A stretch of 41,794 nucleotides of DNA from Polyangiales bacterium (GTDB lineage: Bacteria; Myxococcota_A; Polyangia; Polyangiales; Polyangiaceae). The notes under the pieces were generated by a model, which made no database searches, was not told the origin of the DNA, and worked only from the letters and a program-made list of their open reading frames with translations. The DNA lies in assembly GCA_038231275.1 (NCBI GenBank), contig JBBRLQ010000048.1, positions 1-41,794 on the forward strand, given 5' to 3'. Of this stretch, positions 6,547 through 41,794 are shown piece after piece. A program made the position numbers and the translations under genes. The number at the start of each line of letters is the position of its first letter. The stretch's first letter is position 1.

Positions 6547-7524
6547 TCACGGTTTCGGCGAGACGAGCGGATTCACGCCAGCGCCTTGAAATAGCGCCCT
6601 TTGGTTCGTGGTCGGGTCGGTGAACTGGTTGTAGAGCGTGCCAGTGCCCGTCGAGGGGTCGATCGCGATCACGCCGCCCGTGCCGTCGTGCGTGAACGCG
6701 AAGACCTTGCCAGCGCCGAATGCGACGCCGAAGAGCCTCCCATATCCGATCCCGCCATCGGACGCGGTGGCGTTCACGTTCGAGAGATCGATCCGCACGA
6801 GCAAGTTGTTCGTGAGCGTCGCCGGTGACGCGACCGAGTACGCGCTGCCAAACGTGGTGCCGTCGCCAATCGTAGCGAGGTCGCCCACAAGCGCGAGTCC
6901 GCCGTTCAGTGAGCCGATCAGCGTCACCTTAGGAGGCGTCGTCGCCGGGTCGAGGCTGCAGATCGCTCCCTTTTCGTCCCCGAGGTAGAGCTTGCCGCTC
7001 GTGGTGGCCGTAAGCGCGACGTTCCCCGCACCGCACGGCGCGATGTCACCGACCTTCGTGACGTGCCCCGTCATCGCGTCGGCGCGGTAAAGCGCGCTCT
7101 GCGAGACGACCCAAACGACGTCGTCCGGCGTCACCGCGAGGTCCAGAAGACTATCCTCGCCAACGCCCGCTTCCGTCGTCGGCGGCGCCTGAAACGGGCC
7201 CACCGGCACCAGCGACGTCGTCGTCAGATCGACGTAGTAGAGCGAGTGATCGGTGTGCGCGTAGATGGTGTAACAACCCGTCGAGGAAGGCGGGCACCCG
7301 CGCTGCGGCGAGCGCGCGTCGGCATCCGTTGCGTCCGAGACATCCGCGAGGCCGCCGTCCGATGGCGTGGGCCCGTCGACCGCGCTCGGCGCATCGCTCG
7401 TGGCGTCGCTCGTCGACGCGTCGACTGCAGGCGCGGAGGGGGAGCCGTCCGAGCCCCCGCACGCGACCGCCCCGGAGGCCAGCGACAGAGAGGCGAAGAC
7501 CACAGAGAGCAAACGGTGACGCAT
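6547..7524 (-). CDS. lipoprotein with predicted beta-propeller-like domain
   Basis: signal peptide with AVAC lipobox, DA-rich linker, repeated beta-strand units (DLAVTPD, LYRAD, LVRIDL, IAIDP). Confidence 0.75.
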   Translation of the reverse strand: MRHRLLSVVFASLSLASGAVACGGSDGSPSAPAVDASTSDATSDAPSAVDGPTPSDGGLADVSDATDADARSPQRGCPPSSTGCYTIYAHTDHSLYYVDLTTTSLVPVGPFQAPPTTEAGVGEDSLLDLAVTPDDVVWVVSQSALYRADAMTGHVTKVGDIAPCGAGNVALTATTSGKLYLGDEKGAICSLDPATTPPKVTLIGSLNGGLALVGDLATIGDGTTFGSAYSVASPATLTNNLLVRIDLSNVNATASDGGIGYGRLFGVAFGAGKVFAFTHDGTGGVIAIDPSTGTGTLYNQFTDPTTNQRALFQGAGVNPLVSPKP

Positions 7525-7577
7525 GCGTCAGGTTAGCAAGATACGAGGGGAGATACGACGACGAGCGCGCCGGATCA

Positions 7578-7895
7578 TCAGTCGTACCTTACCAGCACGC
7601 TCATTCGCGTGTCCGTGGACGAGGTCGTCCAAGGCGTTCCGTTCGCGTCCTGCCAGTGAACGGACCAGTCGACGCTGGCCGCGTCGGGATGGGACAGCAG
7701 GTACTGCCTCGCGTCCGCCTTGCCCTCCGCGTATGCCTTGTTCTGATCGACTTGGAGGTCCGGCCCCTTTTTCTTCTTGTCGGTCCGCTGAATGCTGGCG
7801 CAGGTAACGCAGCCGTGGATGCGCGGAGCCTGGTCGTAGGCGGGCGTGTTTTCATCGACGCGCTCGAGCGCGATCTCTTTCTTCGCTTCGCTCAC
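7578..7895 (-). CDS. small hypothetical protein with CxTC leader (cassette A cargo)
   Basis: GTG start overlaps the stop of the upstream DcrB-like gene (GTGA); N-terminal motif shared with 40400..40876. Confidence 0.75.
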   Translation of the reverse strand: MSEAKKEIALERVDENTPAYDQAPRIHGCVTCASIQRTDKKKKGPDLQVDQNKAYAEGKADARQYLLSHPDAASVDWSVHWQDANGTPWTTSSTDTRMSVLVRYD

Positions 7896-8422
7896 GGACG
7901 CACCCGCCGAGGGCCGGGTATCGGGACGGTGGGGAGCATGGCCAACGGCGGCGGCGTGACCGACCGCGGGCCGCCGGGCGTCGTGGACGACAGCGTCGCC
8001 GCCATGCCGACGCTCAAGCTCGAGAGCATGTGCTCGAAGGGCTCGGACGCGTCACCGGCGAGCATGGTGCACGTGGCGACGAGCACGCCCTGCTCCCCGT
8101 CGTCCACCCACGCGAGCATCTCGCGCACGACTCCGTTCTCGCTGTCCCATTGCATTGAAGCCCGGAAGGCGCTTTGGCCGCCGAGCCTCGTCGGCTGGCC
8201 TTCGACGAGTCGACGCTCGGGAGCGTTTCGCGAGATCTCGACGAGACGGCGCCACGCGTACGCCGACAACGGCTCGCTGGGCTCGCGCTGATCACGGGTG
8301 ACGACGACGCTGGGCACGGGCGACGCGCCCCTCGCCGGATCGACGAAGACGAGGATCTCGCGCCGCGGCCACGCGCCAGGAGCGTCGAACGAGAAGGGGC
8401 CGAACTCGTGGCGATGAGGCAT
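7892..8422 (-). CDS. DcrB/DUF1795-like (Mog1p/PsbP-fold) putative T6SS adaptor
   Basis: EFGPFSFDAPGAW...SVVVTRD...TRLGGQSA...VATCT...FEHMLSS pattern typical of DcrB/EagR-like proteins; clear paralog of 39835..40380, which precedes vgrG. Confidence 0.7.
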   Translation of the reverse strand: MPHRHEFGPFSFDAPGAWPRREILVFVDPARGASPVPSVVVTRDQREPSEPLSAYAWRRLVEISRNAPERRLVEGQPTRLGGQSAFRASMQWDSENGVVREMLAWVDDGEQGVLVATCTMLAGDASEPFEHMLSSLSVGMAATLSSTTPGGPRSVTPPPLAMLPTVPIPGPRRVRP

Positions 8423-8435
8423 TCGCAAAATTAGA

Positions 8436-8450
8436 GCAAGAGTGAGGCCA
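8436..8450 (-). promoter_or_regulatory. sigma54 -24/-12 promoter for cassette A
   Basis: TGGC-CTCACTC-TTGC(T) on the minus strand; GG-N10-GC spacing. Confidence 0.65.
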
Positions 8451-8561
8451 GCCCGCTTTTGCTCGAGGAGGAGCCGCAGGCGGCAAGCGTCAGCCGAGAC
8501 ATGAGCACCAGGTACGAAGCGCTGCGCAGAGGGCGCCCCGTTCCGAGGCCCTCTCGCGCTG

Positions 8562-8602
8562 TCGGACCTCTGGAGTCCGATGCTCGGACCGTTTCGGTCC
8601 GA
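8562..8602. promoter_or_regulatory. tandem palindromic upstream activator sites (UAS A)
   Basis: TCGGACC-tctgg-AGTCCGA (8562-8580) and perfect TCGGACC-gtttc-GGTCCGA (8584-8602), 22 bp period. Confidence 0.75.
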
Positions 8603-8651
8603 GATGGATCGGGGGAGGGCAGGCTGCGACCTCTTTCCGATGGAGTGGCAC

Positions 8652-9782
8652 TCACTGCTTCGGGGCGAAGCCGATCGTCCCCGCCGTGAAGTCGAAGAAG
8701 ACGTCCCTTTGGTAGAAGGGGATGGGGCCCAAGTTGTTGCCGATTGCCGTGCCGGCGCCGAGGACGAACGCGTCCTTGCCGACGACCGCGGGCGTGCCGA
8801 CCGTGAACGTCCACGACGCGTTCGTTGCGAGCTTTCCGGTGACGACCGTGCCTGCGGGAAAAGAGGTGCTTCCGTCAGGTATGCCGAGCGCGGCGTAGTC
8901 CGCCGGCGTCGAGACCGCGACCTTCGCGGCGTTGCCGCCCGTATCGATGATGCCGGTCGCGCAGAACGCGTTCAGGCAAAAGGGAACCTGCGTGTCCAAC
9001 CAACCAGGAACGCCGGACGCCGAGGTTTGCCCGTTCGTCGTCAGATGCACGAGATTCGCGTTGAAGCGGGCGATCTCGGCGGCGCTGGGGTCGACGTGCA
9101 GAACGCCCGCGCCGTCGCCGAACGCACCGAATGCAAGGATGTATTGTGCATGCGTTCCGAGCGCCGCGAGTGGGCTCGCGAGGTTCTTGGACGCACGCAT
9201 TCCTACACCGAGAATCGCGTTGAATTGGCCGCGGAAGCGAAACATGTCGATGGTCTTCCCAGCCGCTTCGCAGTTCGGCGCGCTCGCCGTGCAGGTCGCG
9301 CTGGTGACGTCTTCGACGGCGATCATTTTCGTCGTCTTGACGCCGCCGATCGTCACGAACGCATTGGCGATCGAGCCCCCAACCGTGACCCCGCTGCCGT
9401 ACGTCTCGGAGGCGGCAGCGGTGGCGGTGACGGTCCATGCGCTATCGGGGACGGTCCCCGTAATCACACGTAGCCCCACCGAGCCCGTGTCGAAGAATGC
9501 CGTGAACGGGGGGCTATCGCCGACGGAGATCTGGACGGTGCTGAAGGTGCCGTTCGGTCCGTTGGTCATCGGAGAGATTGGAATGTCGAACGCGGATCGC
9601 GGGCCCGCGGCCTCGACGTTGGCGTCGTGCGCCGGCGCGGCGGCGTCCGCCGGCGGAGTCGTGGTGCCGCCGTCGGCGCCGCCGGCATCGGCTTGGTCCG
9701 CCGGCGTGGCCGAGGCACCGCCTCCACACGCGGCCCCGAACGAGGCGAAAAGGATACTGAGGTTACGAAGCTTCATTGGCAT
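8652..9782 (-). CDS. pepsin-like aspartic protease lipoprotein (DUF3443-like)
   Basis: lipobox GAAC; two DTG motifs (FFDTGSVG, IIDTGGN), ILGVG, NLGPIPFYQRDVFFD...IGF ending. Confidence 0.75.
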   Translation of the reverse strand: MPMKLRNLSILFASFGAACGGGASATPADQADAGGADGGTTTPPADAAAPAHDANVEAAGPRSAFDIPISPMTNGPNGTFSTVQISVGDSPPFTAFFDTGSVGLRVITGTVPDSAWTVTATAAASETYGSGVTVGGSIANAFVTIGGVKTTKMIAVEDVTSATCTASAPNCEAAGKTIDMFRFRGQFNAILGVGMRASKNLASPLAALGTHAQYILAFGAFGDGAGVLHVDPSAAEIARFNANLVHLTTNGQTSASGVPGWLDTQVPFCLNAFCATGIIDTGGNAAKVAVSTPADYAALGIPDGSTSFPAGTVVTGKLATNASWTFTVGTPAVVGKDAFVLGAGTAIGNNLGPIPFYQRDVFFDFTAGTIGFAPKQ

Positions 9783-15661: not shown

Positions 15662-16087
15662 ATGACGCTGAAAAGGCCACGTTCTGCGACTGCCGCTCTT
15701 CAGGTTCGGGTGATGCTCGTCGATGATGACGACGACTCGCGCGAATTGGTCGGAGAATTGCTGCGATTCAGCGCGGGCTTCCTAGTATCGACCTTCGAGA
15801 GCGCGGAGGATGCTTTGGACTCGCTCGACCGTTCAATCCCGCATGTGGTGATCACGGACGTGAAGCTTCCGGGAATCGACGGGTACGAGTTGGCTGCACG
15901 CCTGAAAAAGGATCCTCGCACGAGAAGCCTCTCCATCGTAGCGATGACCGGCCTGTCGGATCCGAGATCTGCGGACGGCACGAGTCCGTTTAGCGGTTAC
16001 ATCGTGAAGCCGACTTCGACGGAGGCACTCGTGGCAGTGGTGCGTCGCCTCGTGTCCGCGAAGGTTGCCGTGGCGCGACACGCCTGA
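15662..16087 (+). CDS. single-domain response regulator (CheY-like)
   Basis: VMLVDDD, ITDVKLPGIDG, AMTG, IVKP. Confidence 0.88.
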   Translation: MTLKRPRSATAALQVRVMLVDDDDDSRELVGELLRFSAGFLVSTFESAEDALDSLDRSIPHVVITDVKLPGIDGYELAARLKKDPRTRSLSIVAMTGLSDPRSADGTSPFSGYIVKPTSTEALVAVVRRLVSAKVAVARHA

Positions 16088-16154
16088 TTCTTGCTCGTCC
16101 TCAGGGTCGCCCCCCTTCCTCTACCGCAGGAGCGCAAACATGAGGTTGAGCCCA

Positions 16155-17336
16155 CTAGCCGGGACTGGATCGCGTCTTGGGCTTCTTCTTCCTCAGGGTT
16201 GGGGCTGAGGATGCCGAAGTGGGAAGGACATGCTTTTGTTGGCGACTGCCAATCGGAGTAGGCGGTGGTGGTTGCTTAGGTAGGTCGATGGTGAACACGC
16301 ATCCCTTGCCAGGGATGTCGCGTACCCGCAGCTCACCGTTCATCGCTTTTGCAGCCTTGAGGCAGATGGAAAGACCTAGGCCAAGTCCCGACCGGTCGCC
16401 GCCGCGTTGCGAGTACGGTTGAAACAATTCCGCAATTTTTCCAGGCGGAAGTCCACCACACTCGTCCTCTACCTCGATGAGAACGCGGTCAGAGGTAGTG
16501 CTCGTCGTCAACCAAACACGGCCTTTTTTCTGGGTGAACTTGAGGGCGTTCTGAACCAAATTTGCAACCGCTGCTGTCAGAATCTGCCGGTCCGCTTCGA
16601 CGATTACGGTGGGTTCACCAAGCTTGACAGTGAGGTGAATCCCCTTCGCTTGTGCCTGAACGGATCCGGTGATCTCGACCTCTTCGATGACTTCGGCGAC
16701 GGCCACTCGCTCCGGATTCTGGATGCCGGAATCGATACGTACATCGGCAAACGAACGGTCGATGAGATTGCGAAGGCCCAAGAGACTTCGGACGTGCATG
16801 AGGCCGGTGCTGCCGTTGACAGCGACAATACCCATCTTGATGCTTTCGAAGGAGAGAATGGCTGTATTGAGAAGGTTGCGCATTTCGTGAACGAGGACAC
16901 CAAGACGCTCGGTTCCCTCGTCACGGATGGATCCCTCGCTCTGGCGAGCGTAGGCAGTGACGGCCTCGGCAATTGCATCGTCGAGGCACAGGTTGAGGGT
17001 CCGAAACTCGTCCGTCGTGACCGGCGCATTGCGTTCGACCGCCAGCGTCGTCACCACCTGGCAGATGTCGCCATAGTCCTGGACAACCTGCCGCACGGTG
17101 AAGCCTTCGCGCCAGAGGTCCCTGCCATGGCGCGTGGCCGCTCGGACAATTGGGTCTTGATTTTCCGTGCCCGTCCGCTCTTTGAGCAGCAAAGCATCCC
17201 GCAGTTGGTCCAAAAAGATGGGGAGGCCCGTTTCCAGCTCCAACGCGGTGTGTTCGGTCTCGCTTCTCGACGCTACCCTTTGTTTTACCCGAGTGAGAAT
17301 CTCAGTTCGATTAGCTTGTAGAAATTGGTAAAGCAA
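16155..17336 (-). CDS. cytoplasmic sensor histidine kinase
   Basis: H box VHEMRN, N box NLVQNALKFT, DECGG, GLGLGL, GKGCVF; N-terminal RsbRD-like helical region; no TM segment. Confidence 0.9.
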   Translation of the reverse strand: MLYQFLQANRTEILTRVKQRVASRSETEHTALELETGLPIFLDQLRDALLLKERTGTENQDPIVRAATRHGRDLWREGFTVRQVVQDYGDICQVVTTLAVERNAPVTTDEFRTLNLCLDDAIAEAVTAYARQSEGSIRDEGTERLGVLVHEMRNLLNTAILSFESIKMGIVAVNGSTGLMHVRSLLGLRNLIDRSFADVRIDSGIQNPERVAVAEVIEEVEITGSVQAQAKGIHLTVKLGEPTVIVEADRQILTAAVANLVQNALKFTQKKGRVWLTTSTTSDRVLIEVEDECGGLPPGKIAELFQPYSQRGGDRSGLGLGLSICLKAAKAMNGELRVRDIPGKGCVFTIDLPKQPPPPTPIGSRQQKHVLPTSASSAPTLRKKKPKTRSSPG

Positions 17337-17928
17337 GACGTTCCTCCACGCGCTTTATCAACGCAGTAAGGTCAATCGGCTTTCCGATGATCCGACCTGA
17401 CATGGTCGGGATGAAGGCACGCGTTTGTGCGGTGGTGCCGCCACCGGTGACGAAGATCATTCGCTCGGCCTGTTCAGGAGCCGCAACCAGCAGCTTCGCA
17501 TACAGTACATCCCCGCTCATCCCGGGCATCATGATGTCGGAAATAATCACTTGGAACGATTCTCCCTCCACGATGAGGCGGAGCGCCTCCAATGGATCGG
17601 TGATGACCGTAACGTCGTATCCGACGAGGCAAAGAGCAATGGCCTCCGCACTGTCTTCGTCATCGTCCACGAGCAGGATTCGGGCGAGCTGAGGATCGCT
17701 CGGGCTTCCTATGGGGTTGGCTAACGCGCATGCTGCCGACGTGAGCGAGGTGTTGGTCAGGGTCTCCCTACGATTGGAAGTGCGACTGCTGCCTTGGGTG
17801 GTGGGCAACTTCCCCACCGCCTTTTTTCTCGAACGACTCTCGACGACCTCCGTGCGGGAGACCGGGGCCGGTGGGGCCGATGCGGAAGGAACCACGGCGG
17901 CCACTGGTATCGGCTTCAGGCGAATCAT
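17311..17928 (-). CDS. response regulator with N-terminal low-complexity extension
   Basis: ILLVDDD, ISDIMMPGMSG, FVTG, GKP; start uncertain. Confidence 0.82.
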   Translation of the reverse strand: MIRLKPIPVAAVVPSASAPPAPVSRTEVVESRSRKKAVGKLPTTQGSSRTSNRRETLTNTSLTSAACALANPIGSPSDPQLARILLVDDDEDSAEAIALCLVGYDVTVITDPLEALRLIVEGESFQVIISDIMMPGMSGDVLYAKLLVAAPEQAERMIFVTGGGTTAQTRAFIPTMSGRIIGKPIDLTALIKRVEERLALPISTS

Positions 17929-18017
17929 TACTGCAGCTCTAGGCAGAGCAATTAGCCGGCCGAGAGGACGTGTGCGGTAAAGCGCCGTTTTTCGTCGACC
18001 AGCACGTCCGCGGCAAG

Positions 18018-28522: not shown

Positions 28523-31500
28523 TCAGATCGGGCTGTACGTCGAATTGGACGGCTGGAACGTCTGCCACGTGCCGTTCTGAACGTGGTCGGAGAGCTCGCC
28601 GGAGTGCGGGTCTCCGAGGACGAGCGTGTTGGGCTCGTTCGCACCGAACCACCTCGAGTTCGACGCGAGGGGGCTGTTCGAGGTGGCCGCGCCGACCGGA
28701 GAGCCGGTGGTGTCGGAGAGCTGCCGCGCGCTCGAGTCGCCCATGACGTAGTTGCCGTTCGGCCCCGCCGCGACGATGGGCTGCGTCCCGCCGTTGCACG
28801 AGTGGAGCGTGACGGGGCGGTTCGGACCGCCCTTGAAGCCTGCCGCGTTCAGGTCCTGACCGAGCTGCACCCCGTTGACGGGCTTCCCGTCGAACCACGT
28901 CTGCCCCGGCGCGCCGTGGGCGTCGATGATCACGCTGTCGGCGCCGGCCAGGCTGCCCGGCGTGAGCTGACTCGGCGTGAAGAGCTGCGCCCCGGGGTTG
29001 GCTGCGACGTCGTAGTTCCCCCAGGTCTGGACGGCGGAGTCCCCGAGGTCACCCTCGATGACGGCGACGAATAGGCCGAGCGGGTCGACGCTGCACGTCG
29101 GATTCGGCACGAACGCGATGTCTTGGCCCGAGCCGCGAAGCTCCAACGGATCCGGGGACAAGAAGACGCCGAGCTCGGGCGAGTAGGTGCGGTGCCGATT
29201 GTACGAGAGGCCGGTGAGCGAGTCCGCGCGCTGCCCGGCGAAGCGCAGGCGCCCGGGATTTTCGCTGGCGCGCGCGACGGCCCCGGTCGCCGTGAGATCG
29301 ATGTCGGCGATCCCACCGGTCGCGTCGAGGTACGTCCACGGCGTGCCGGCGGCGTCGGTCGCGACGAGTCGAAACCCGCCGCCATCCGTGGACTCCAGGA
29401 GCAGCGAGTAGGCGTCGTCCTTGAACACGCGACGCGTCGGCAGCGTCCCGGTCCCTTGCTCCTCGACGAGGCCGTCGCCGTCCCAGCCATAGCGCGTGAC
29501 GTTGCCCTCACAGAGCTCGAGGAGTCGCCGGCCCAGCGCGTCGGACACGTAGTCGACGCGAAGCCCGTCGCCGCGCACCGCCGCCGCGAGCTGGTGGCGC
29601 TCGTCGTATTCGTATGCCCAACACATGAGGGGATCGGGATCGCGTCGCGAGGCGAGCCTTCCGAAGTCGTCCCACGCGAGCGTCGACGTGCGGGTGTTGA
29701 GGGGGCGACCGCCCCGGCCGAGCTGCGCGGTGGCCGGCCCTCTCGAAGAGACTGGCGTCCCGTGCGCCGAGTAGACGAAGCGCTCGTCCGCGCCGAGCCC
29801 GTCGACGCCGAGGATGCGGCCGCGCGCGTCGAGCGAATAGGACCGCGTTCCGTACTGCGCGTCGCCAATCGCGGTGACGGCGCCGTGCGCGCTCCACGCG
29901 TACGTCCGCTCGCGCACCGGCCGCCCGGCGTGGACGACGGTGACGCGCTCCGGGAGGCCCTCGGCGTTGCGCTGGGTGAGCACTGCCTGGCCGGCGCGGC
30001 GCCGAGCGAGCTCGTTCGCGCGCGCGTCGTGCTCGAGCTCGAGGACCTCGTGCGCGGACTCGCCGCCGACGCGCACGCGCACGGGGAGGCCTGATGGGCT
30101 GCGCTGAACGTCGACGCTCCATCCGCTCGAATAGCGGCGCGAGACGGCGCGCGAAGCAGCGTCGCGGACGTAGTCGACGGAGAAGCGCCAGTCGCCCACC
30201 GTCTGGACCTCGCGGACGACCGCGCCGAGCGCGTCGCGCGTGTACTCGACCGCCACGGTGCGGCCGCGCGTCGTCAGCTCCGCGAGGAGGAGGCGGCCGC
30301 CGGGATCGTACGCGTAGCGCTCGCTCGCGCCGCTCGAGTGGGCGCACGTGAGCACGCGACCCGCCGCGTCGTAGCTGATGGCGACGCTGCTGCCATCCGA
30401 GCGAACGACGTGGGACAGCCGCCCTTCGGCGTCGTATTCGCACGACTGGCGGACGCCCGCGAACGTGGACGCCGCGGCCGGATTGCCGCGCGCGTCGCAG
30501 CGAATTTCGTACCGCTCGCCCGCCGCGTTCACGAGCCACGCCGGACGCAGCACCGCGTCGAAGCCCATTCGCCAGACGGCGCCGTCGGGGAGCGTCGTCT
30601 CCACGAGCGCGTCGGCGACGTAGCGGCATCGAATCACCGCGCCGCTCGCGTACTTCGTCGCGACGATTCGCTTGAGCGCGTCGAGCTCGTATTCCGTGCG
30701 AAGACCCGCCGTGTCCTTGGCCACGAGGTTGTTGCCGTCGTCGTAGAAGAGCGTCGTCTTCTTGCCGGTCGGATCGGTGAGCGTGGTGAGAATGCCGAAC
30801 GGGTCGTACTCGAAGGTCCAGGTCGCGCCGTCGGCGTTGGCGCGGCGAATCAGGTTCCCTTGCGCGTCGTAGGCGCTCGATACGACGCCGCCGTCGGGCA
30901 GCGTCACGCTGGTCCGTTGGCCGCGTGCGTCGAGGCCGTAGCGACGACGACCACCCGACGGGTCCGTCACTTCGACGACGCGTCCGCGCGCGTCGCATCG
31001 CGACTGCCACACGCTGCCGTCGGGGTTCTTGACCGCCCGGATCCCGCCGCGGCCCGCGAGGACCTCGGTGGTCCCGTTCGCGTCGCTCTTCGACGTCGGG
31101 CGCCCCTCGTCGTCGTACGACAGCGTCGTCTCGTTGCCGAGCCCGTCGGTGAACGACGTCTGCCGACCGCCGGCGTCGTAGGCGTACGTCCGCGCGACGG
31201 CGCTCGGGTCGGTGTACTTCGTGACGACGCCGAGCGGAGACAATTCGTAGCGATGCGTCGACCCCACCCCGTCGATGACGGTCGACTCGGCCGGCCCGTA
31301 CCGGAGGCTCGTGTGGAAGATGCCCTTCGGCGGCACGTCGGCTGGGAGGTGGACGCGCGACGGCGCTGGCCCCGGACCGAACGCGAGCGACGAAGGCGGC
31401 GGACCGACGGGCCGCGGCGAGGGCGGCGCGCCGAGCTCGCGCAGGACGTCGCGCCCCGGGATCTCGCCCCACGTCTCGACGCAGCGGGCTTCGTCGCCGA

Positions 31501-32536
31501 ACGTGGCGTAGCGGAACTGGAAGACGAGCCCGTCCGCGCGACGCTCGGACATCATGCGGTGCGCGTGGTCGTACGTGTACTCGGTGGTTCGCCGCCTTGC
31601 GTCGGTCGCGCGAACGAGGTCGCCGCGCGCGTCCAGCTCGTAGACCGCGAGCGTTCGCGGTGACGCCGCGCCGCGCGCGTGCGCGAGCCACGCCCGACGG
31701 TGACCTTCCTTGACCAGGAACGCGCGACGCCCGACCGAGTCGATGACGCGCGCGATCTCGTGCCCATTCCAGCCGACGCGCGCGATGTTGCCCGACGCAT
31801 CGGTGAGCTCGGTCAGGCGGTGCATACCCTCGGGGCTACGGCGGAGAACGCGGAGGAGCCCGTCGCGCAGATCGAGGAAGAGCGTGTCGCCGCGGCGAAA
31901 GAGCGCGCGCCCGAACGGCAGGGCGACGACCCGACCTTCGACGGGGAGCAAAGCCTCGACCGGTTGCCCATCGGGGCCGAGGAGGAACACGCGATCGCCG
32001 ACGCGGTCCGCGCTCCAGTAGAGATCGTGTGACCAACCGAAGCCGAGGCCGCAGTCGCGAAGCGCGCTCGACGAGCGGTAGGACCTGCTCCACGCGACCG
32101 GGAAAATCCCGGGGAGGACGAAGTCCTCGCTGGGATGGGTGAACATCCTCCCGCTCGCGACGTCGACGGGATGGCCGGCCGACGCCGTCCCGGGGCCCGA
32201 CGCCGAGCCAGTCGGCGCGCCGCCGACGTCGACGTTGGGGCTACCGACGATGAGCTGCCCCATGCCGCCGCAGTGGGTCGTCTGATCGCCGACGCGGTGC
32301 GCCGGGAGGTTGTTGATGGTGACGGTGGAGCTGCCTTGTGAGGCCTTCCAGGTGTTCGCCCCGCAGCACGCGCTGTGCTTGCCGGGATCGGTCACCCGCA
32401 GCGCCTTCTGGTCGTTCACCGTCACGTTCGGCGACCCGTTCGTCCCGGGGCCGACGCACGTGTGCGCGCAGCACGGGTTGCCGTGCGAGTCCGCCGGCAC
32501 CTTTGCATTGTCCCCGACGCGACCTTGTGCGGCCAT
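28523..32536 (-). CDS. PAAR-Rhs (YD-repeat) T6SS effector with C-terminal His/Cys peptidase-like domain
   Basis: N-terminal PAAR (GSPNV, PAHRVGD), HPVDVASG (DUF6531-like), YD repeats, core end GQRADSLTGLSYNRHRTY...FLSPDP...NPTCSVDPLGL, 182-aa CT with IDAHG and LHSC. Confidence 0.92.
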   Translation of the reverse strand: MAAQGRVGDNAKVPADSHGNPCCAHTCVGPGTNGSPNVTVNDQKALRVTDPGKHSACCGANTWKASQGSSTVTINNLPAHRVGDQTTHCGGMGQLIVGSPNVDVGGAPTGSASGPGTASAGHPVDVASGRMFTHPSEDFVLPGIFPVAWSRSYRSSSALRDCGLGFGWSHDLYWSADRVGDRVFLLGPDGQPVEALLPVEGRVVALPFGRALFRRGDTLFLDLRDGLLRVLRRSPEGMHRLTELTDASGNIARVGWNGHEIARVIDSVGRRAFLVKEGHRRAWLAHARGAASPRTLAVYELDARGDLVRATDARRRTTEYTYDHAHRMMSERRADGLVFQFRYATFGDEARCVETWGEIPGRDVLRELGAPPSPRPVGPPPSSLAFGPGPAPSRVHLPADVPPKGIFHTSLRYGPAESTVIDGVGSTHRYELSPLGVVTKYTDPSAVARTYAYDAGGRQTSFTDGLGNETTLSYDDEGRPTSKSDANGTTEVLAGRGGIRAVKNPDGSVWQSRCDARGRVVEVTDPSGGRRRYGLDARGQRTSVTLPDGGVVSSAYDAQGNLIRRANADGATWTFEYDPFGILTTLTDPTGKKTTLFYDDGNNLVAKDTAGLRTEYELDALKRIVATKYASGAVIRCRYVADALVETTLPDGAVWRMGFDAVLRPAWLVNAAGERYEIRCDARGNPAAASTFAGVRQSCEYDAEGRLSHVVRSDGSSVAISYDAAGRVLTCAHSSGASERYAYDPGGRLLLAELTTRGRTVAVEYTRDALGAVVREVQTVGDWRFSVDYVRDAASRAVSRRYSSGWSVDVQRSPSGLPVRVRVGGESAHEVLELEHDARANELARRRAGQAVLTQRNAEGLPERVTVVHAGRPVRERTYAWSAHGAVTAIGDAQYGTRSYSLDARGRILGVDGLGADERFVYSAHGTPVSSRGPATAQLGRGGRPLNTRTSTLAWDDFGRLASRRDPDPLMCWAYEYDERHQLAAAVRGDGLRVDYVSDALGRRLLELCEGNVTRYGWDGDGLVEEQGTGTLPTRRVFKDDAYSLLLESTDGGGFRLVATDAAGTPWTYLDATGGIADIDLTATGAVARASENPGRLRFAGQRADSLTGLSYNRHRTYSPELGVFLSPDPLELRGSGQDIAFVPNPTCSVDPLGLFVAVIEGDLGDSAVQTWGNYDVAANPGAQLFTPSQLTPGSLAGADSVIIDAHGAPGQTWFDGKPVNGVQLGQDLNAAGFKGGPNRPVTLHSCNGGTQPIVAAGPNGNYVMGDSSARQLSDTTGSPVGAATSNSPLASNSRWFGANEPNTLVLGDPHSGELSDHVQNGTWQTFQPSNSTYSPI

Positions 32537-37773: not shown

Positions 37774-38552
37774 CGTGGATGGCGCGGGTCGCCGCAACTG
37801 CGGCGCTGCTCCTTTGCGCGGGGCGTGCCGACGCGGCCGACGCGGACTTCGAGTCGTGCCGCGCGGCAGCGCTCGAGGCGCAGCGGCTGCATGCGGCGCA
37901 GGCGCTGCTCGAAGAGCGCGGCGAGCTCCTCAAATGCCTCCGCCCCGAATGCCCGGACGTCATCCAGGCTTCGTGCCGCGGCTGGCTCGAGGAGAACCAC
38001 GAGGCGCGCCCTAGCCTTGTCGTCATCGCAAAGGACGCGCGCGGCAACGACGTCGTGGGCGCGACGTTCACGGTCGACAAAGACCGCACGGCTCGCAAGG
38101 TCGACGGCAAGCCGCTCGAGCTGAACCCCGGCACGCACACGATTCATGGAGAGGCGCCGAGCCTCGCGCCGCTCGAGATGGAGATCATGGTGGCCATCGG
38201 CGTGAAGCTCCGCCCCGTGACGCTCAGCTGGCCGGCCGCCGCGGAGACGCCGGAGCCGACCAAGCCGCCGCCTCCTCCGAAGACCGTCGAGGTCCGCCCG
38301 ATCCCCGCGCGGGTCCTCGTTCTCGGCGCCGCGTCGGCCGTCGCGCTCGGCGCCGCGACCGTCTTCGGCGTCCTCGCGTGGCGCGAGTACGACGATCTGC
38401 GCGCGAGCAACCGCGGCGATCAGCAGCCGCTCCCCACGTACCGCGTCGCCGGCGACGTTGCGCTGGGCGTCGGCGTCGTCCTCGCGGGTCTCACGCTTTG
38501 GCAATTTCTGACGCGCCCCGCCGTGCGTCAGTTCGAGCACTCGTCCTTGTAG
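37770..38552 (+). CDS. exported PEGA-like protein with C-terminal TM helices
   Basis: GTGA coupling to the kinase; signal peptide, C..CP....C..W, PSLVV.AKD, LELNPGTH, two hydrophobic helices. Confidence 0.75.
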   Translation: MTWMARVAATAALLLCAGRADAADADFESCRAAALEAQRLHAAQALLEERGELLKCLRPECPDVIQASCRGWLEENHEARPSLVVIAKDARGNDVVGATFTVDKDRTARKVDGKPLELNPGTHTIHGEAPSLAPLEMEIMVAIGVKLRPVTLSWPAAAETPEPTKPPPPPKTVEVRPIPARVLVLGAASAVALGAATVFGVLAWREYDDLRASNRGDQQPLPTYRVAGDVALGVGVVLAGLTLWQFLTRPAVRQFEHSSL

Positions 38553-39664
38553 TTGGGGCCGCACGGCGAGCTGGCGTCGACGACCGGGCCGAGCGGACCG
38601 GCGAGCGCCTGCACCGCCGTGAAGCCCACACCCATCGAGAACGCGTCGCACGCGGCGCCGGTGCGGTCGCCAGCGGCGTCGGCCGTGATGTCGGGAGCGC
38701 CGCAAATTCGCGGTTTGATCGCAGCGTAGGTCAGGCTCCCCTTGCAGAGCTTTCCGCCGTCGACGAAGGGGTCGTCGAATTCGGCCAGCGCGGCGAGGGC
38801 GTCGACGGTGGCCCAGCGGCCCGCGATGACTCCCTCCCCCAGCCGTCCGAGACCGCCGTCGCTCGTGACGCGCGCAGCCAGAACGCCGCCTTGCAGCTTC
38901 ACGGTCAGGTTGAACGCGCCCGAAACGGTCAGGGGAAAGTCCACGTGCGCGACGAGGACCCCGCGGGCGACGTAGGCGACGGGATCGACGTACACCGGCA
39001 GGAACGGCGGCCCCTGCTGTCCGGCGACCGAGCTTCGGTTGAGCGTCCAGACGTCTGTTCCGTCGAAACGCGCGGGCGGATGGAAGCCCGCGTCGTTGAC
39101 CGGCGTTCCGTCGGAGATGAAGAGGGCGAGCTCGACCTGCGGGTCGTTCTGCGTGCCGTTGTACTTGTGGAGGACGAAGAGCAGGCTCGCGTGCCCAATC
39201 GCGATGATCTCGTTCGCGCGCGCTTGATCGATGACCTTGCCGAAGCCGCTCAGGCTGGTGAGGAGATCGCCGCCGCCGTTGTCCACGCCGCCGTCGCGAT
39301 CGCACATCAACCCCGTGCCGGCGCAGGCCGGCGCGTCGGGGCAGGTGCACAGACCGTCCAGATCGAAGCCCGGCGCGGGGCCGGCGTCGCCGAAGCCGAG
39401 CTCCACCGTCTGGAGCGCGAAGGTCAGGTCGACGTCGGCGCCGCCCGGATCGTCGGCCGCGGGGCGCGCTGGCCAATGGACGAGCGGACAGCCCGGGGGC
39501 GGCGTGGCGTCGGCGACGTCGTTCGCCGCGTCGCCGGCATCGAGCGGCGGCGCGGCGTCCGCGGGACCGGCGCCGGGGCCGTCGAGCTGAAAGAGCAGCG
39601 AGCAGGCGGCGATCAAGGGCATCCCCACGATGACCACGGCCTTGACCACGCGCCGGCGCATCAC
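38528..39664 (-). CDS. hypothetical Cys-containing lipoprotein
   Basis: LIAAC lipobox, DAG linker, GFDLDGLCT and DRDGGVDN motifs; TACGCT -10 box 6 nt before GTG. Confidence 0.78.
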   Translation of the reverse strand: MMRRRVVKAVVIVGMPLIAACSLLFQLDGPGAGPADAAPPLDAGDAANDVADATPPPGCPLVHWPARPAADDPGGADVDLTFALQTVELGFGDAGPAPGFDLDGLCTCPDAPACAGTGLMCDRDGGVDNGGGDLLTSLSGFGKVIDQARANEIIAIGHASLLFVLHKYNGTQNDPQVELALFISDGTPVNDAGFHPPARFDGTDVWTLNRSSVAGQQGPPFLPVYVDPVAYVARGVLVAHVDFPLTVSGAFNLTVKLQGGVLAARVTSDGGLGRLGEGVIAGRWATVDALAALAEFDDPFVDGGKLCKGSLTYAAIKPRICGAPDITADAAGDRTGAACDAFSMGVGFTAVQALAGPLGPVVDASSPCGPNYKDECSN

Positions 39665-39683
39665 CCGCGCAGCGTACCGCCAG

Positions 39684-39724
39684 TCGGACCACCGCGGTCT
39701 GGTGATCGGACCGAACGGTTCCGA
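39684..39724. promoter_or_regulatory. tandem palindromic UAS (UAS B)
   Basis: TCGGACC-accgc-GGTCTGG (39684-39702) and TCGGACC-gaacg-GTTCCGA (39706-39724), 22 bp period. Confidence 0.75.
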
Positions 39725-39806
39725 TGCTCGCCCGCGACGTGGGTCGTCCCCCGGGAAAAACAGGGCATTTGCCGCGCGACGCACCTCTCCGCACGGTCAC
39801 CGCCCG

Positions 39807-39834: not shown

Positions 39835-40380
39835 ATGGCCCATCGCCGCGAAGAGTTCGGCCCGTTCACGTTCGAGGCGCCGGCCGAGTGGTCGCGCCGA
39901 ATGGTGCTCGTCTACTCCGACCCATCGAAGTCCGCGTCGCCGATCGTCTTGACGCGCGACCAGCGCCTCGCCGGGGAGGCGCTACCCACCTACGCGTGGC
40001 GGCGCCTGTTCGAGATCGCGCGCGACACCCCCGATCGGCGCGTCGTCGACGCGCGCGCGACCCGGCTCGGCGAGCAGCCGGCGTTCCGCGCGACGCTGCA
40101 CTGGATGACTCCCTCGGGCCCCGCGCGCGAGGCGATCGCCTGGGTGGACGGCGGAGACGGCGCGGTCCTCGTCGCGTCGTGCACGTCGATGGAGGAGGAC
40201 GACGCCTTCCAGCCGTTCGAGCAAGTGCTCGCGGGCATCCGCTTCGGCGCGAGCCCGCCGATCTCGAGCGTCCCTCCCACGCCGCCGGCGCCGCCGCGCT
40301 CGAGCCCGCCGCCCGCGTTCGACAACTCCGCGCTCTACGGGTCGGTGCCGATGCCCGGCGCGCGGCCGATGCGCCGATGA
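39835..40380 (+). CDS. DcrB/DUF1795-like putative T6SS adaptor
   Basis: EFGPFTFEAPAEW, LTRDQR..GEAL.TYAWRRL.EI.R, TRLGEQPAFRA; paralog of 7892..8422; in operon with vgrG. Confidence 0.72.
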   Translation: MAHRREEFGPFTFEAPAEWSRRMVLVYSDPSKSASPIVLTRDQRLAGEALPTYAWRRLFEIARDTPDRRVVDARATRLGEQPAFRATLHWMTPSGPAREAIAWVDGGDGAVLVASCTSMEEDDAFQPFEQVLAGIRFGASPPISSVPPTPPAPPRSSPPPAFDNSALYGSVPMPGARPMRR

Positions 40381-40399: not shown

Positions 40400-40876
40400 A
40401 TGAATCCTGCGGACCAACAGAGCTACGACCTCGATTCGCCGGGCGACGTCTACCAGCTCAAGCGAATGGACGACAACGAGATGGCGCGCAAGCCCAAGCC
40501 GGCGTGCCCGACGTGCAGCGCCGCCGACAAGGACAAGCCCAACCCCAAGCACAAGCTCTCCGTCACCACGTACCAAGGCGGTCCGTTCACGGCGACCAAG
40601 ACGATGGACCTGACCGACGGCACCTCGTACACGGGCGTCGGCGTGGCGTTGCCGCCGGGCATCGGGATGTCGCAGGAGGTTTGCGTGGTGCAACCATTCC
40701 CCGGCAACAGCGCGGCCGACGTGATCACCGGCACCGGCGCGACGCTTTCGTACAACGGGGAGATCGCGGGCCCGTCCGCTTCGATCGGGGGAAACACCAG
40801 CGGCGTCATCGGATGTGTGGGCGTCTCTACCGGCGTCGGGGGCGGCTGGGCGGCGGGCGGTGGCTACACATGGTGA
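40400..40876 (+). CDS. small protein with CxTC leader and Gly-rich beta C-terminus (cassette B cargo)
   Basis: GGGAG RBS; overlaps the vgrG start; leader shared with 7578..7895. Confidence 0.78.
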   Translation: MNPADQQSYDLDSPGDVYQLKRMDDNEMARKPKPACPTCSAADKDKPNPKHKLSVTTYQGGPFTATKTMDLTDGTSYTGVGVALPPGIGMSQEVCVVQPFPGNSAADVITGTGATLSYNGEIAGPSASIGGNTSGVIGCVGVSTGVGGGWAAGGGYTW

Positions 40877-41794
40877 CGACCAACGCGCTCAAGCTCGCGT
40901 TCGCCCAGTCCACCGAGACGCTCGACGTCCGTACGTTCACCGTCAAAGAATCGCTGAACGAGCTCTTCGAGCTCGAGGTCACCGCCGTCTCGCAGAACGA
41001 CGCGGTCGATCTCGACGCGATCGTCGGCAAAGGGGCCGCCCTGTGGGTGCGCCCGGTGCTCGACGAGCTGAGCCTCGGCTCGCCGGCGATGCCGCGCGCG
41101 TGGGCGGGCGTCGTCGCGGACATGTCGGTCTCGGCGCTGTCGCGCGCGCAGGCGACCTATTGCCTCAAGATCGCGCCGATGCTGTGGCGGACGACGCTCC
41201 GCAAAAACCTGCGCATCTACCAGCACAAGAGCACCGTCACGATCGTGAAGGAGCTGCTCGCGGAGTGGGGGATCACGCCGGAGCTGCAGCTCACGCTCGA
41301 TCGGTACCTGCCGCACGAGTACTGCGTGCAGTACGACGAGAGCGATTTCGCCTTCATCTCGCGCCTCCTCGAGGAGGCGGGCATCACGTTCGCGTTCGCG
41401 CACGACGCGACGAAGCGGCGCGGCGACGAGATCACGCGCCTCGTCCTCAAGGACCACCCCACCGATACGAAGAACCGACGCAAGGCGCCGCTCGCGTACA
41501 CCGATCAGATCGAGGCGATGACCGCCGATCGCGATTTCTGCTCGGACGTGACGCTCCGCCAGCGCGTTCGGCCGGGGCGCTTCGCGGTGCGCGACTTCGA
41601 CTTTCGCGCGCCGACCTTGCCGCGTTTCGGCAAGTCGTCGAGCGGCACCCGCGAGGACGCGATCGAGCAGTACGGCTACGATCCGGGCACCTTCTGGTGG
41701 GACTCCGAGCGCGTCGAAAAACCGGTGGCCGATCGCGACCACGGTCCCAACGTGGTCACCACGACGATGGATCCGACGGCGCGCCGCGAGATGG
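40870..41794 (+). CDS. vgrG: type VI secretion spike protein VgrG, 5' part (truncated by the window)
   Basis: manual translation: MVTTNALKL...ESLNELFELEV...RKNLRIYQHKS...YCVQYDESDFAFISRLLEEAGI...VRDFDFRAP; open to the window end. Confidence 0.93.
   Translation, partial: MVTTNALKLAFAQSTETLDVRTFTVKESLNELFELEVTAVSQNDAVDLDAIVGKGAALWVRPVLDELSLGSPAMPRAWAGVVADMSVSALSRAQATYCLKIAPMLWRTTLRKNLRIYQHKSTVTIVKELLAEWGITPELQLTLDRYLPHEYCVQYDESDFAFISRLLEEAGITFAFAHDATKRRGDEITRLVLKDHPTDTKNRRKAPLAYTDQIEAMTADRDFCSDVTLRQRVRPGRFAVRDFDFRAPTLPRFGKSSSGTREDAIEQYGYDPGTFWWDSERVEKPVADRDHGPNVVTTTMDPTARREM

Follow-up and report, generated by a model that had tools for sequence, protein, structure and literature searches.

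The DNA analysed here is contig C48 (GenBank JBBRLQ010000048.1) of a Polyangiales bacterium, taken over its entire length of 41,794 bases and referred to as the window. It belongs to a genome (G000) of 9.28 Mb distributed over 164 contigs with ~68-70% GC, and was compared with two sister genomes of the same genus (g1), G001 and G002. The window carries two cassettes, A and B, in each of which a gene encoding a DcrB-like protein, from now on referred to as the adaptor, is immediately followed by a gene encoding a small protein with a CxxC motif close to its N-terminus (Table 1). In the first-pass annotation of the window these pairs had been proposed as a possible new class of polymorphic cargo of type VI secretion systems (T6SS), the small proteins having a common N-terminal leader followed by unrelated C-termini.

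The coordinates, the gene order and the coding signal of both pairs were confirmed. The GC content at third codon positions (GC3) is 0.83 and 0.88 for the small open reading frames (ORFs) A and B and 0.87 and 0.93 for adaptors A and B, as is typical for real genes of the window. In cassette A the start of small protein A and the stop of adaptor A share 4 nt (GTGA), while in cassette B there are 19 nt between adaptor B and small protein B and the stop of the latter overlaps the start of vgrG (ATGGTGA); each small gene looks translationally coupled to its adaptor. A promoter scan of the region 7300..8800 gave no promoter-like site on either strand, the terminator/promoter scan being uninformative on the minus strand.

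Table 1. Position of the cassette genes, their motifs and an adjacent gene in the window
Feature	Position	Strand	Description
Adaptor A	7892..8422	-	Eag/DUF1795 (DcrB-family), 176 aa from ATG; body, Pro-rich linker and C-terminal tail
Tail of adaptor A, VPIPGPRRVRP	7895..7927	-	Variant of the genus-wide [VF]P[MI]PGxRxxRR
Small protein A (P0001)	7578..7895	-	105 aa, GTG start; residues 1-47 leader, 48-105 orphan beta-rich payload
CVTC motif of small protein A (residues 29-32)	7800..7811	-	Followed by RTDKKKKGP
Adaptor B	39835..40380	+	Eag/DUF1795, 181 aa; tail VPMPGARPMRR at 40345..40377
Small protein B (P0004)	40400..40876	+	158 aa; leader LKRMD...PKPACPTC...DKDK; 8-stranded beta-barrel payload, residues 51-158
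CPTC motif of small protein B	40505..40516	+	Within the leader
vgrG, N-terminal part	40870..41794	+	Cut by the contig end; Pfam Phage_GPD, E 3.1e-56
Predicted lipoprotein, 325 aa	6547..7524	-	53 nt downstream of small protein A, same strand

Eag-type adaptors of the genus

The products of both upstream genes score above the cut-off of the Pfam family DcrB PF08786 (27.2), with 46.1 bits (E 6.5e-12) for adaptor A and 38.2 bits (E 1.8e-9) for adaptor B, in agreement with their first assignment as DcrB-like, and share 52% identity across 141 aa (E 9e-50). When a profile of 7 adaptors of the genus was compared with solved proteins it matched EagT6 (PA0094) with E 2e-11 and SciW with 5e-7, while the match to the lipoprotein DcrB gave 0.052. 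Judged by these sequence profiles both upstream genes are Eag/DUF1795-type adaptors, nearer to the solved Eag chaperones than to DcrB. The adaptor profile has 10 matches in G000 and 11 in G001, and at least one match (E up to 1e-8) was found in 26 of 301 genomes of the order. A scan of the adaptor alignment over genome contigs returned a single locus, the G002 contig.

The tail behind the Pro-rich linker, which the first-pass annotation had singled out as common to the two cassettes, is real but was found not to be specific to them. The linker together with the end [VF]P[MI]PGxRxxRR is present in all 7 aligned adaptors, including two (on C28 and C25) located before effectors with a prePAAR motif, a transmembrane domain (TMD) and PAAR, and in nine of the ten adaptors of G000 if the variant FPMPRQRR is counted. 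Searching the six-frame ORFs of G000 with the tail as a regular expression gave 12 matches, 8 of them adaptors. Among 30 loci examined from the order the tail is confined to genus g1, and it is not seen in the solved Eag proteins (146-153 aa). It marks the Eag-like proteins of the genus in general, those serving prePAAR effectors included, and is not specific to the CxxC cassettes; it may be a docking peptide. Tailed adaptors and their tails were recorded in the window (7895..7927 and 40345..40377), at L002:5900-6433, L003:4338-4928 and L004:7036-7590 and in the G001 loci L037 and L044-L049.

To place the adaptors, a maximum-likelihood tree was made from 50 adaptor bodies (the first 150 residues, tails removed). 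This revealed a clade of 12 members, all from this genus and with a support of 95/90, holding 8 of the 10 adaptors linked to CxxC proteins and none of the 23 linked to prePAAR effectors. The remaining members are two adaptors linked to PAAR-vgrG (C14 and G001:C41) and two others. The CxxC label requires 2 changes on the tree, compared with a mean of 8.8 after shuffling, and none of 500 shuffles came as low. Adaptor A is the closest paralogue of adaptor B.

Cassette B overlaps vgrG while cassette A itself has no spike gene adjacent to it. Other adaptors adjoin PAAR-vgrG or prePAAR effectors, and sister adaptors with the same tail precede prePAAR-TMD-PAAR effectors. The Rhs gene of the window (28523..32536, minus strand) encodes a PAAR-DUF6531-Rhs protein of 1337 aa, the PAAR of which begins at residue 4 and is very similar to the PAAR encoded on its own on C14; neither a prePAAR motif nor any hydrophobic stretch was found in its first 140 residues, which bears out the earlier remark that no obvious transmembrane segment follows this PAAR. 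By tblastn there are ~9 VgrG-like regions in the genome and nothing ties cassette A to cassette B, leaving the suggestion that A uses the VgrG of B unsupported.

Two neighbouring observations concern the spike genes. On C14 (L002:3208-6433) and in G001:C41 (L011:1498-3546) an adaptor of the CxxC clade, the two being orthologues, is divergent from a stand-alone PAAR gene, which is followed by vgrG. These PAAR proteins are 110-118 aa long with the N-terminus GRVGD...GKPCCxHTC and no leader protein is found after the adaptor, which may serve the PAAR itself. The vgrG of cassette B probably continues on contig C34, the end of which (L051:8587-9924) encodes a match to residues 321-724 of the C14 VgrG; C48 and C34 probably join within this gene with ~28 codons missing.

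The CxxC leader and its recurrence

In the current understanding, Eag/DUF1795 chaperones act in the cytoplasm and shield the transmembrane segments of prePAAR effectors. The latter are defined by the prePAAR motif, transmembrane segments and PAAR (PMC7773334). None of these features could be identified in the clients of the CxxC-linked adaptors. The motif AARxxDxxxH, searched as a regular expression, is absent from all 10 small proteins, and the maxima of the 19-residue Kyte-Doolittle mean range from 0.09 to 1.59, none of them in the leader, indicating no transmembrane segment. Pfam searches gave no match for P0001 and P0004 at E up to 1 or for P0008, the orthologue of small protein A, at E up to 5, and thus no PAAR, DUF4150 or DUF4280; for five proteins with the payload of small protein B, searched at E up to 10, the only row was noise (Fve, E 0.72), and NCBIfam returned rows at noise level only for the small proteins. 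In a published survey PAAR fusions represent 96.5% of the toxins encoded within two genes after DUF1795 homologues (PMC7714669), so the clients described here are atypical.

Comparing small proteins A and B by BLASTP gave 13 identities over 36 positions (E 0.023), restricted to the leader, and the C-termini could not be aligned. With protein B as tblastn query a third leader paralogue, P0005 (236 aa), was found on C6 with E 2.45e-5, just downstream of another adaptor, and a hidden Markov model (HMM) of the leader built from the three sequences matches those three ORFs only in the genome. Of 40 relatives one, G002, has the same arrangement of adaptor plus leader protein. When 5.8 billion proteins were searched by word index, five were obtained, the three from this genome together with the orthologues P0007 and P0008. 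Exhaustive HMMER searching of 1.84 billion representative proteins with E up to 0.001 returned six, of which P0004, P0007, P0008, P0010 and P0011 are true matches; the sixth was rejected as a false positive consisting of TPR repeats. By these searches the leader family is real and very small, and the leader was thus recovered among homologues as the first-pass annotation had asked. The orthologue P0008 has 76% identity to small protein A, with CAAC at the position of CVTC. When metagenome contigs were scanned, P0015 gave no match and P0010 a single contig.

Of the ten adaptors of G000 four are followed by a CxxC protein, two of these on C6, and a fifth, looser case is situated upstream of an adaptor on C28. 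The second case on C6, at 92 kb, consists of a tailed adaptor followed by a 185-aa protein with DCKSCKKAKDKQDKKAK, while the protein on C28 (L003:3232-4289) is a 201-aa HExxH protein with PCATCDADKKAKKKK. The leader HMM missed the C28 protein at E up to 10, and an HMM made without cassette A missed both at E up to 100; the two are linked to the family by the pattern of CxxC plus a run of lysines and by their context alone. This loose pattern, which was set after the fact, is found in 16 ORFs genome-wide, 5 of which are located beside adaptors.

G001, which took no part in defining the leader pattern, offers an independent count. There, 4 of the 11 proteins encoded downstream of adaptors have a CxxC within the first 70 aa (GCTACGKKKK on C80, GCPACK on C52, GCETC on C135 and VCAHC on C30), against a background of 4.2% (294/6,936) for N-terminal CxxC among the small ORFs of high GC3 in G000. 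The excess corresponds to a binomial P of ~8e-4, a value that treats as independent paralogues that are not.

The homologues of small protein B, which form ~10 clusters, show which part of the leader is conserved. All homologues of payload B with an intact N-terminus (P0010, P0012-P0018) have the CxxC and a charged, K-rich run, while the head preceding these varies; P0019 is an N-terminally truncated fragment. The invariant core is the CxxC followed by a Lys/acid-rich run. The common leader noted at first therefore stands as far as the CxxC and the Lys-rich run are concerned, both of which recur, but its LxRxD head (LERVDEN/LKRMDDN) defines one sub-branch only, and the similarity between A and B is weak.

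Only two cysteines are invariant in the leader, fewer than the four ligands of a zinc ribbon or zinc knuckle, and only P0005 and three G001 proteins have a third cysteine, 2-11 residues further on. A conserved cysteine of the adaptor was considered as third zinc ligand and rejected, a cysteine on the same strand being present also in prePAAR-linked adaptors of other genera and thus not specific. The possibility that the N-terminus of PAAR (GKPCCxHTC, compared with PKPxCPTC in the leader) had been copied was likewise rejected, hhalign giving a probability of 7.3% over 10 columns. AlphaFold2 models the leaders with a predicted local distance difference test score (pLDDT) below 50 in B and below 40 in A, and the counts of K+R and D+E in the leaders are roughly equal.

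Payloads and candidate partners

At least four kinds of payload follow the leader: the orphan beta domain of A, the Vap-like beta-barrel of B, a weakly DUF4329-like domain and an HExxH protein. Each is conserved only within orthologues, and the C-termini are thus variable as first proposed. The 407-aa gene flanking cassette A has a homologue in G001 (42% identity), which is separated by ~900 bases from an adaptor gene located downstream of it on the same strand (G001:C52). This adaptor has as its client a CxxC protein of 103 aa, whose payload is not related to that of A; since the locus is syntenic and the payload a different one, payloads appear to have been swapped. On all three points by which the first-pass annotation was to be judged the findings went its way: the leader was recovered, the C-termini vary and the upstream genes are of the DcrB type.

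The AlphaFold2 model of payload B (residues 51-158) is a closed antiparallel 8-stranded beta-barrel with pLDDT 81-93. Foldseek gave no match at E up to 0.001, its top rows being VapB and VapG of R. equi (E 0.046-0.055, probability 0.99, TM 0.40/0.51). In an all-against-all structural alignment VapB (4cv7) reached Z 8.7 and VapG (5aeo) 7.7, with a root-mean-square deviation of 3.0-3.2 Å (3.0 for VapB) over 99-101 of 110-111 residues (99 for VapB), followed by a COG5400 barrel (7.0) and small outer-membrane barrels (5-6.5), scores close to the level that the aligner flags as a common arrangement. A disordered N-terminal region precedes the barrel in the Vap proteins and in small protein B alike. 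The identity is 9-11%, however, with no Pfam match and no sequence signal to Vap, and the Vap proteins are Sec-secreted and come from an actinomycete. A sequence profile search of the PDB with the payload B family gave only XPA zinc-finger rows (E 0.8-3.9), which are not significant. With the barrel profile, weak matches were obtained in two other genera. One is to a large Rhs-type protein, in the domain behind its Rhs core (E 3.1e-4, profile positions 71-161; L055, G545:C744:1052-4321), and hints that the barrel is used elsewhere as a toxin tip; the other is to a protein of 246 aa whose N-terminus is different. An Atlas neighbour, Ntox25 (0.91; recognition 1694, below the 2300 mark), found no Pfam confirmation and was discarded, and for P0006 the Atlas gave a 0.83 match only.

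The 418-aa gene of the window (38528..39784, minus strand) has a homologue on the metagenome contig that carries the barrel homologue P0010, directly upstream of the latter (L059, 1-648). The product of the 418-aa gene is secreted and belongs to no known family, and the gene is divergent from cassette B and absent beside the G002 and C6 copies; it may have a functional link to the barrel or be its immunity gene.

For small protein A the AlphaFold2 model is unusable (pLDDT 43.7). Using residues 46-105 as query, the only homologue of payload A among proteins of near length is P0008 (75% identity over the payload), and small protein A was not found in G001 or G002. The 325-aa lipoprotein downstream of it shows the same pattern, being present in G000 and, with this query, not in G001 or G002, which makes it a candidate for a cognate partner or immunity gene and nothing beyond a candidate; a weak match to DUF4394 is below cut-off. 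P0005 has a sub-threshold match to DUF4329 (E 0.0036) and a pattern HTHP...S..D which we take to be JAB-like. Both P0005 and the HExxH protein on C28 are followed by an abutting or overlapping ORF, and these could be immunity genes. On C28 the overlapping ORF encodes 151 aa, and both genes are located just upstream of an adaptor that precedes a prePAAR effector, so that they look like a toxin-immunity pair sharing that adaptor.

Several related arrangements were observed in G001. L047 (G001:C30:16000-24000) contains two tandem cassettes. Behind the adaptor of the first is a Gly/Ala-rich, glycine-zipper-like protein of 215 aa without prePAAR; the second combines an adaptor lacking the tail with a downstream CxxC protein of 253 aa, the C-terminus of which is barrel-like. 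In L050 (G001:C135:146000-153500) the adaptor consists of two tandem DcrB domains in one frame with the variant tail SIPGTRRSDA, and it is followed by a 193-aa protein beginning MGCETCNPCKGRK. Apart from the cassettes, the region 16001..18000 of the window has a GC content of 0.58-0.59, compared with 0.65-0.74 elsewhere, and spans a histidine kinase (16155..17336, minus strand) and a response regulator (17311..17928, minus strand); this stretch may be foreign DNA.

A putative loading tag for T6SS cargo

The explanation we favour, with moderate confidence, is that each cassette constitutes a module of T6SS adaptor and cargo. Small PAAR-less proteins with interchangeable payloads would be served, by way of their disordered CxxC/Lys-rich leader, by an Eag clade specific to the genus. 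The cargo would form a lineage-restricted, polymorphic class loaded by a specialised clade of adaptors. Within the Eag/DUF1795 family this clade would have switched its client from a prePAAR effector with transmembrane segments to a small PAAR-less protein. The disordered, charged leader, composed of a variable head, a CxxC knuckle that may bind metal and the Lys/acid-rich run, would be the handle gripped by the cognate adaptor, and the C-terminal domain an interchangeable and possibly toxic payload. The Pro-rich linker and PMPGxRxxRR peptide would in turn dock the loaded adaptor on a shared part of the T6SS, e.g. VgrG or the baseplate, for secretion. The gene order, the stop/start overlaps, the adaptor family, the recurrence of the leader, the variability of the payloads and the clustering on the tree are all observed and are consistent with such a route.

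Several results speak against this explanation. Except for the Rhs at 28.5 kb there is no T6SS gene within ~20 kb on either side of cassette A, and the leader resemblance of cassette A is weak, not significant when taken on the sequence alone. The barrel payload lacks a linked immunity gene in all three downstream contexts that can be read, namely the vgrG of the window (continued at the C34 end) with a convergent gene behind it, a convergent peroxiredoxin on C6 and a convergent esterase in G002, and the barrel homologue P0010 has no adaptor upstream. Two CxxC-linked adaptors, that at 92 kb on C6 and the second domain of the tandem adaptor in G001:C135, fall outside the clade, and as close kin share labels the tree shows clustering and not independent co-evolution. 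Only one uncultured genus and a small number of metagenome contigs have the family, so that few lineages stand behind the interpretation.

The small proteins might instead be accessory or structural parts of the spike and not toxins, the leader binding metal near the VgrG/PAAR tip and the adaptor keeping its client soluble until assembly, an alternative we regard as rather unlikely. It would suit cassette B, an operon of adaptor, small protein and vgrG with overlapping stop and start and without PAAR or immunity gene, and the stand-alone PAAR on C14, which holds the same position before vgrG; the barrel is also without a linked immunity gene in each readable context, and DUF2169 with PIPY domains is a precedent (PMC11883445). 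The payloads are, however, unrelated between cassettes, neither the G002 orthologue of B nor the C6 copy is located beside vgrG, P0005 and the C28 protein resemble toxin-immunity pairs, and the barrel profile reaches, if weakly, an Rhs C-terminal domain in another genus. The Pfam searches moreover gave no PAAR, DUF4150 or DUF4280, and the leader does not resemble the PAAR N-terminus in the hhalign comparison.

A similarly low probability is given to the modules not being T6SS cargo at all, being either an intracellular pair of a DcrB-fold and a CxxC protein (e.g. a chaperone and its metal- or redox-linked factor) or the cargo of some other contractile system. The cassette A and C6 copies are surrounded by unrelated genes, CxxC is a generic metal or redox motif, and the survey cited above counts 448 DUF1795 homologues in genomes without T6SS or spike genes that may not be adaptors, and suspects functions of this sort for many of the homologues (PMC7714669). 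Set against this, the adaptors group with the T6SS Eag chaperones and not with DcrB, their tail is common to adaptors preceding prePAAR-PAAR effectors, and members of the clade abut vgrG or PAAR-vgrG.

The last alternative concerns cassette A only, where the leader resemblance could be due to chance and small protein A be an unrelated gene or another kind of client that happens to have a CxxC and lysines. A leader HMM made from five relatives, with cassette A and its orthologue left out, placed cassette A at rank 40 of 105,785 six-frame ORFs with E 10; together with the pairwise E value, the CAAC instead of CxTC in P0008 and the background frequency of N-terminal CxxC this would fit coincidence. 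On the other hand, we estimate at ~0.4% the chance that one of the top 40 also follows directly on one of ~10 adaptor genes, the elements L-x-R-x-D, P, CxxC and K run come in identical order at equal distance from the start, adaptor A is the nearest paralogue of adaptor B and a CxxC client is present in the syntenic G001 cassette too. Chance is held to be the least probable of the readings.

The explanation of the cassettes as adaptor-cargo modules is most directly compared with the Eag-prePAAR pairs EagT6-Tse6, EagR1-RhsA and SciW-Rhs1 (PMC7773334). The adaptor family is the same, the adaptor gene is located directly upstream of that of its client and there is likewise a link to vgrG/PAAR loci; classical pairs coexist in G000. 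In contrast, the clients here are without AARxxDxxxH, PAAR and transmembrane segment, their leader is charged and predicted to be disordered and their size is 103-253 aa compared with ~450 or ~1200 aa, while the adaptors have an additional Pro-rich linker and PMPGxRxxRR tail that distinguishes them from the solved Eag proteins.

The DUF4123 (Tap/Tec) adaptors follow the same logic in that a non-secreted adaptor ties diverse PAAR-less cargo of unrelated kinds to a conserved part of the spike, but they are of a different fold and family, and the N-lobe of Tap binds a C-terminal helix-turn-helix of VgrG (PMC11582642), whereas the sole docking candidate here is a short C-terminal peptide. Marker domains of the MIX type also combine a conserved N-terminal module with variable C-terminal toxins, and are folded, longer than 100 aa and widespread in Proteobacteria (PMC10673891). 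The leader of the cassettes is ~40-60 aa, predicted to be disordered and found in one myxobacterial genus, and it stands beside a DUF1795 gene in all cases examined except one contig. FIX and RIX are further markers of this kind at the N-terminus of polymorphic T6SS effectors.

Cassettes of adaptor and effector are well known, as are polymorphic toxins; the novelty lies in an Eag clade whose clients are hydrophilic and have a CxxC leader and neither PAAR nor TMD, together with a C-terminal peptide shared by the adaptors. In the literature searched, which did not extend to the supplementary tables of PMC7714669, neither a CxxC leader on clients of Eag proteins nor the adaptor tail peptide is described. 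A more far-reaching version, which we put forward tentatively and hold to be doubtful, is that the clade has been retooled from shielding transmembrane helices to reading a hydrophilic, disordered CxxC/Lys-rich peptide, a portable T6SS loading tag for PAAR-less payloads, with all adaptors of the genus plugging in through the shared C-terminal PMPGxRxxRR docking peptide on its Pro-rich tether. If true, this would be a new mode of effector recognition for the Eag family and a two-part loading code made up of tag and docking peptide.

The T6SS effectors of predatory myxobacteria have been little explored, and none of the payloads described here belongs to a named family. Should the adaptor clade load small, soluble, PAAR-less proteins through the leader, the known role of the Eag family would widen, and the leader would be a short sequence tag whose sufficiency for T6SS loading is directly testable.

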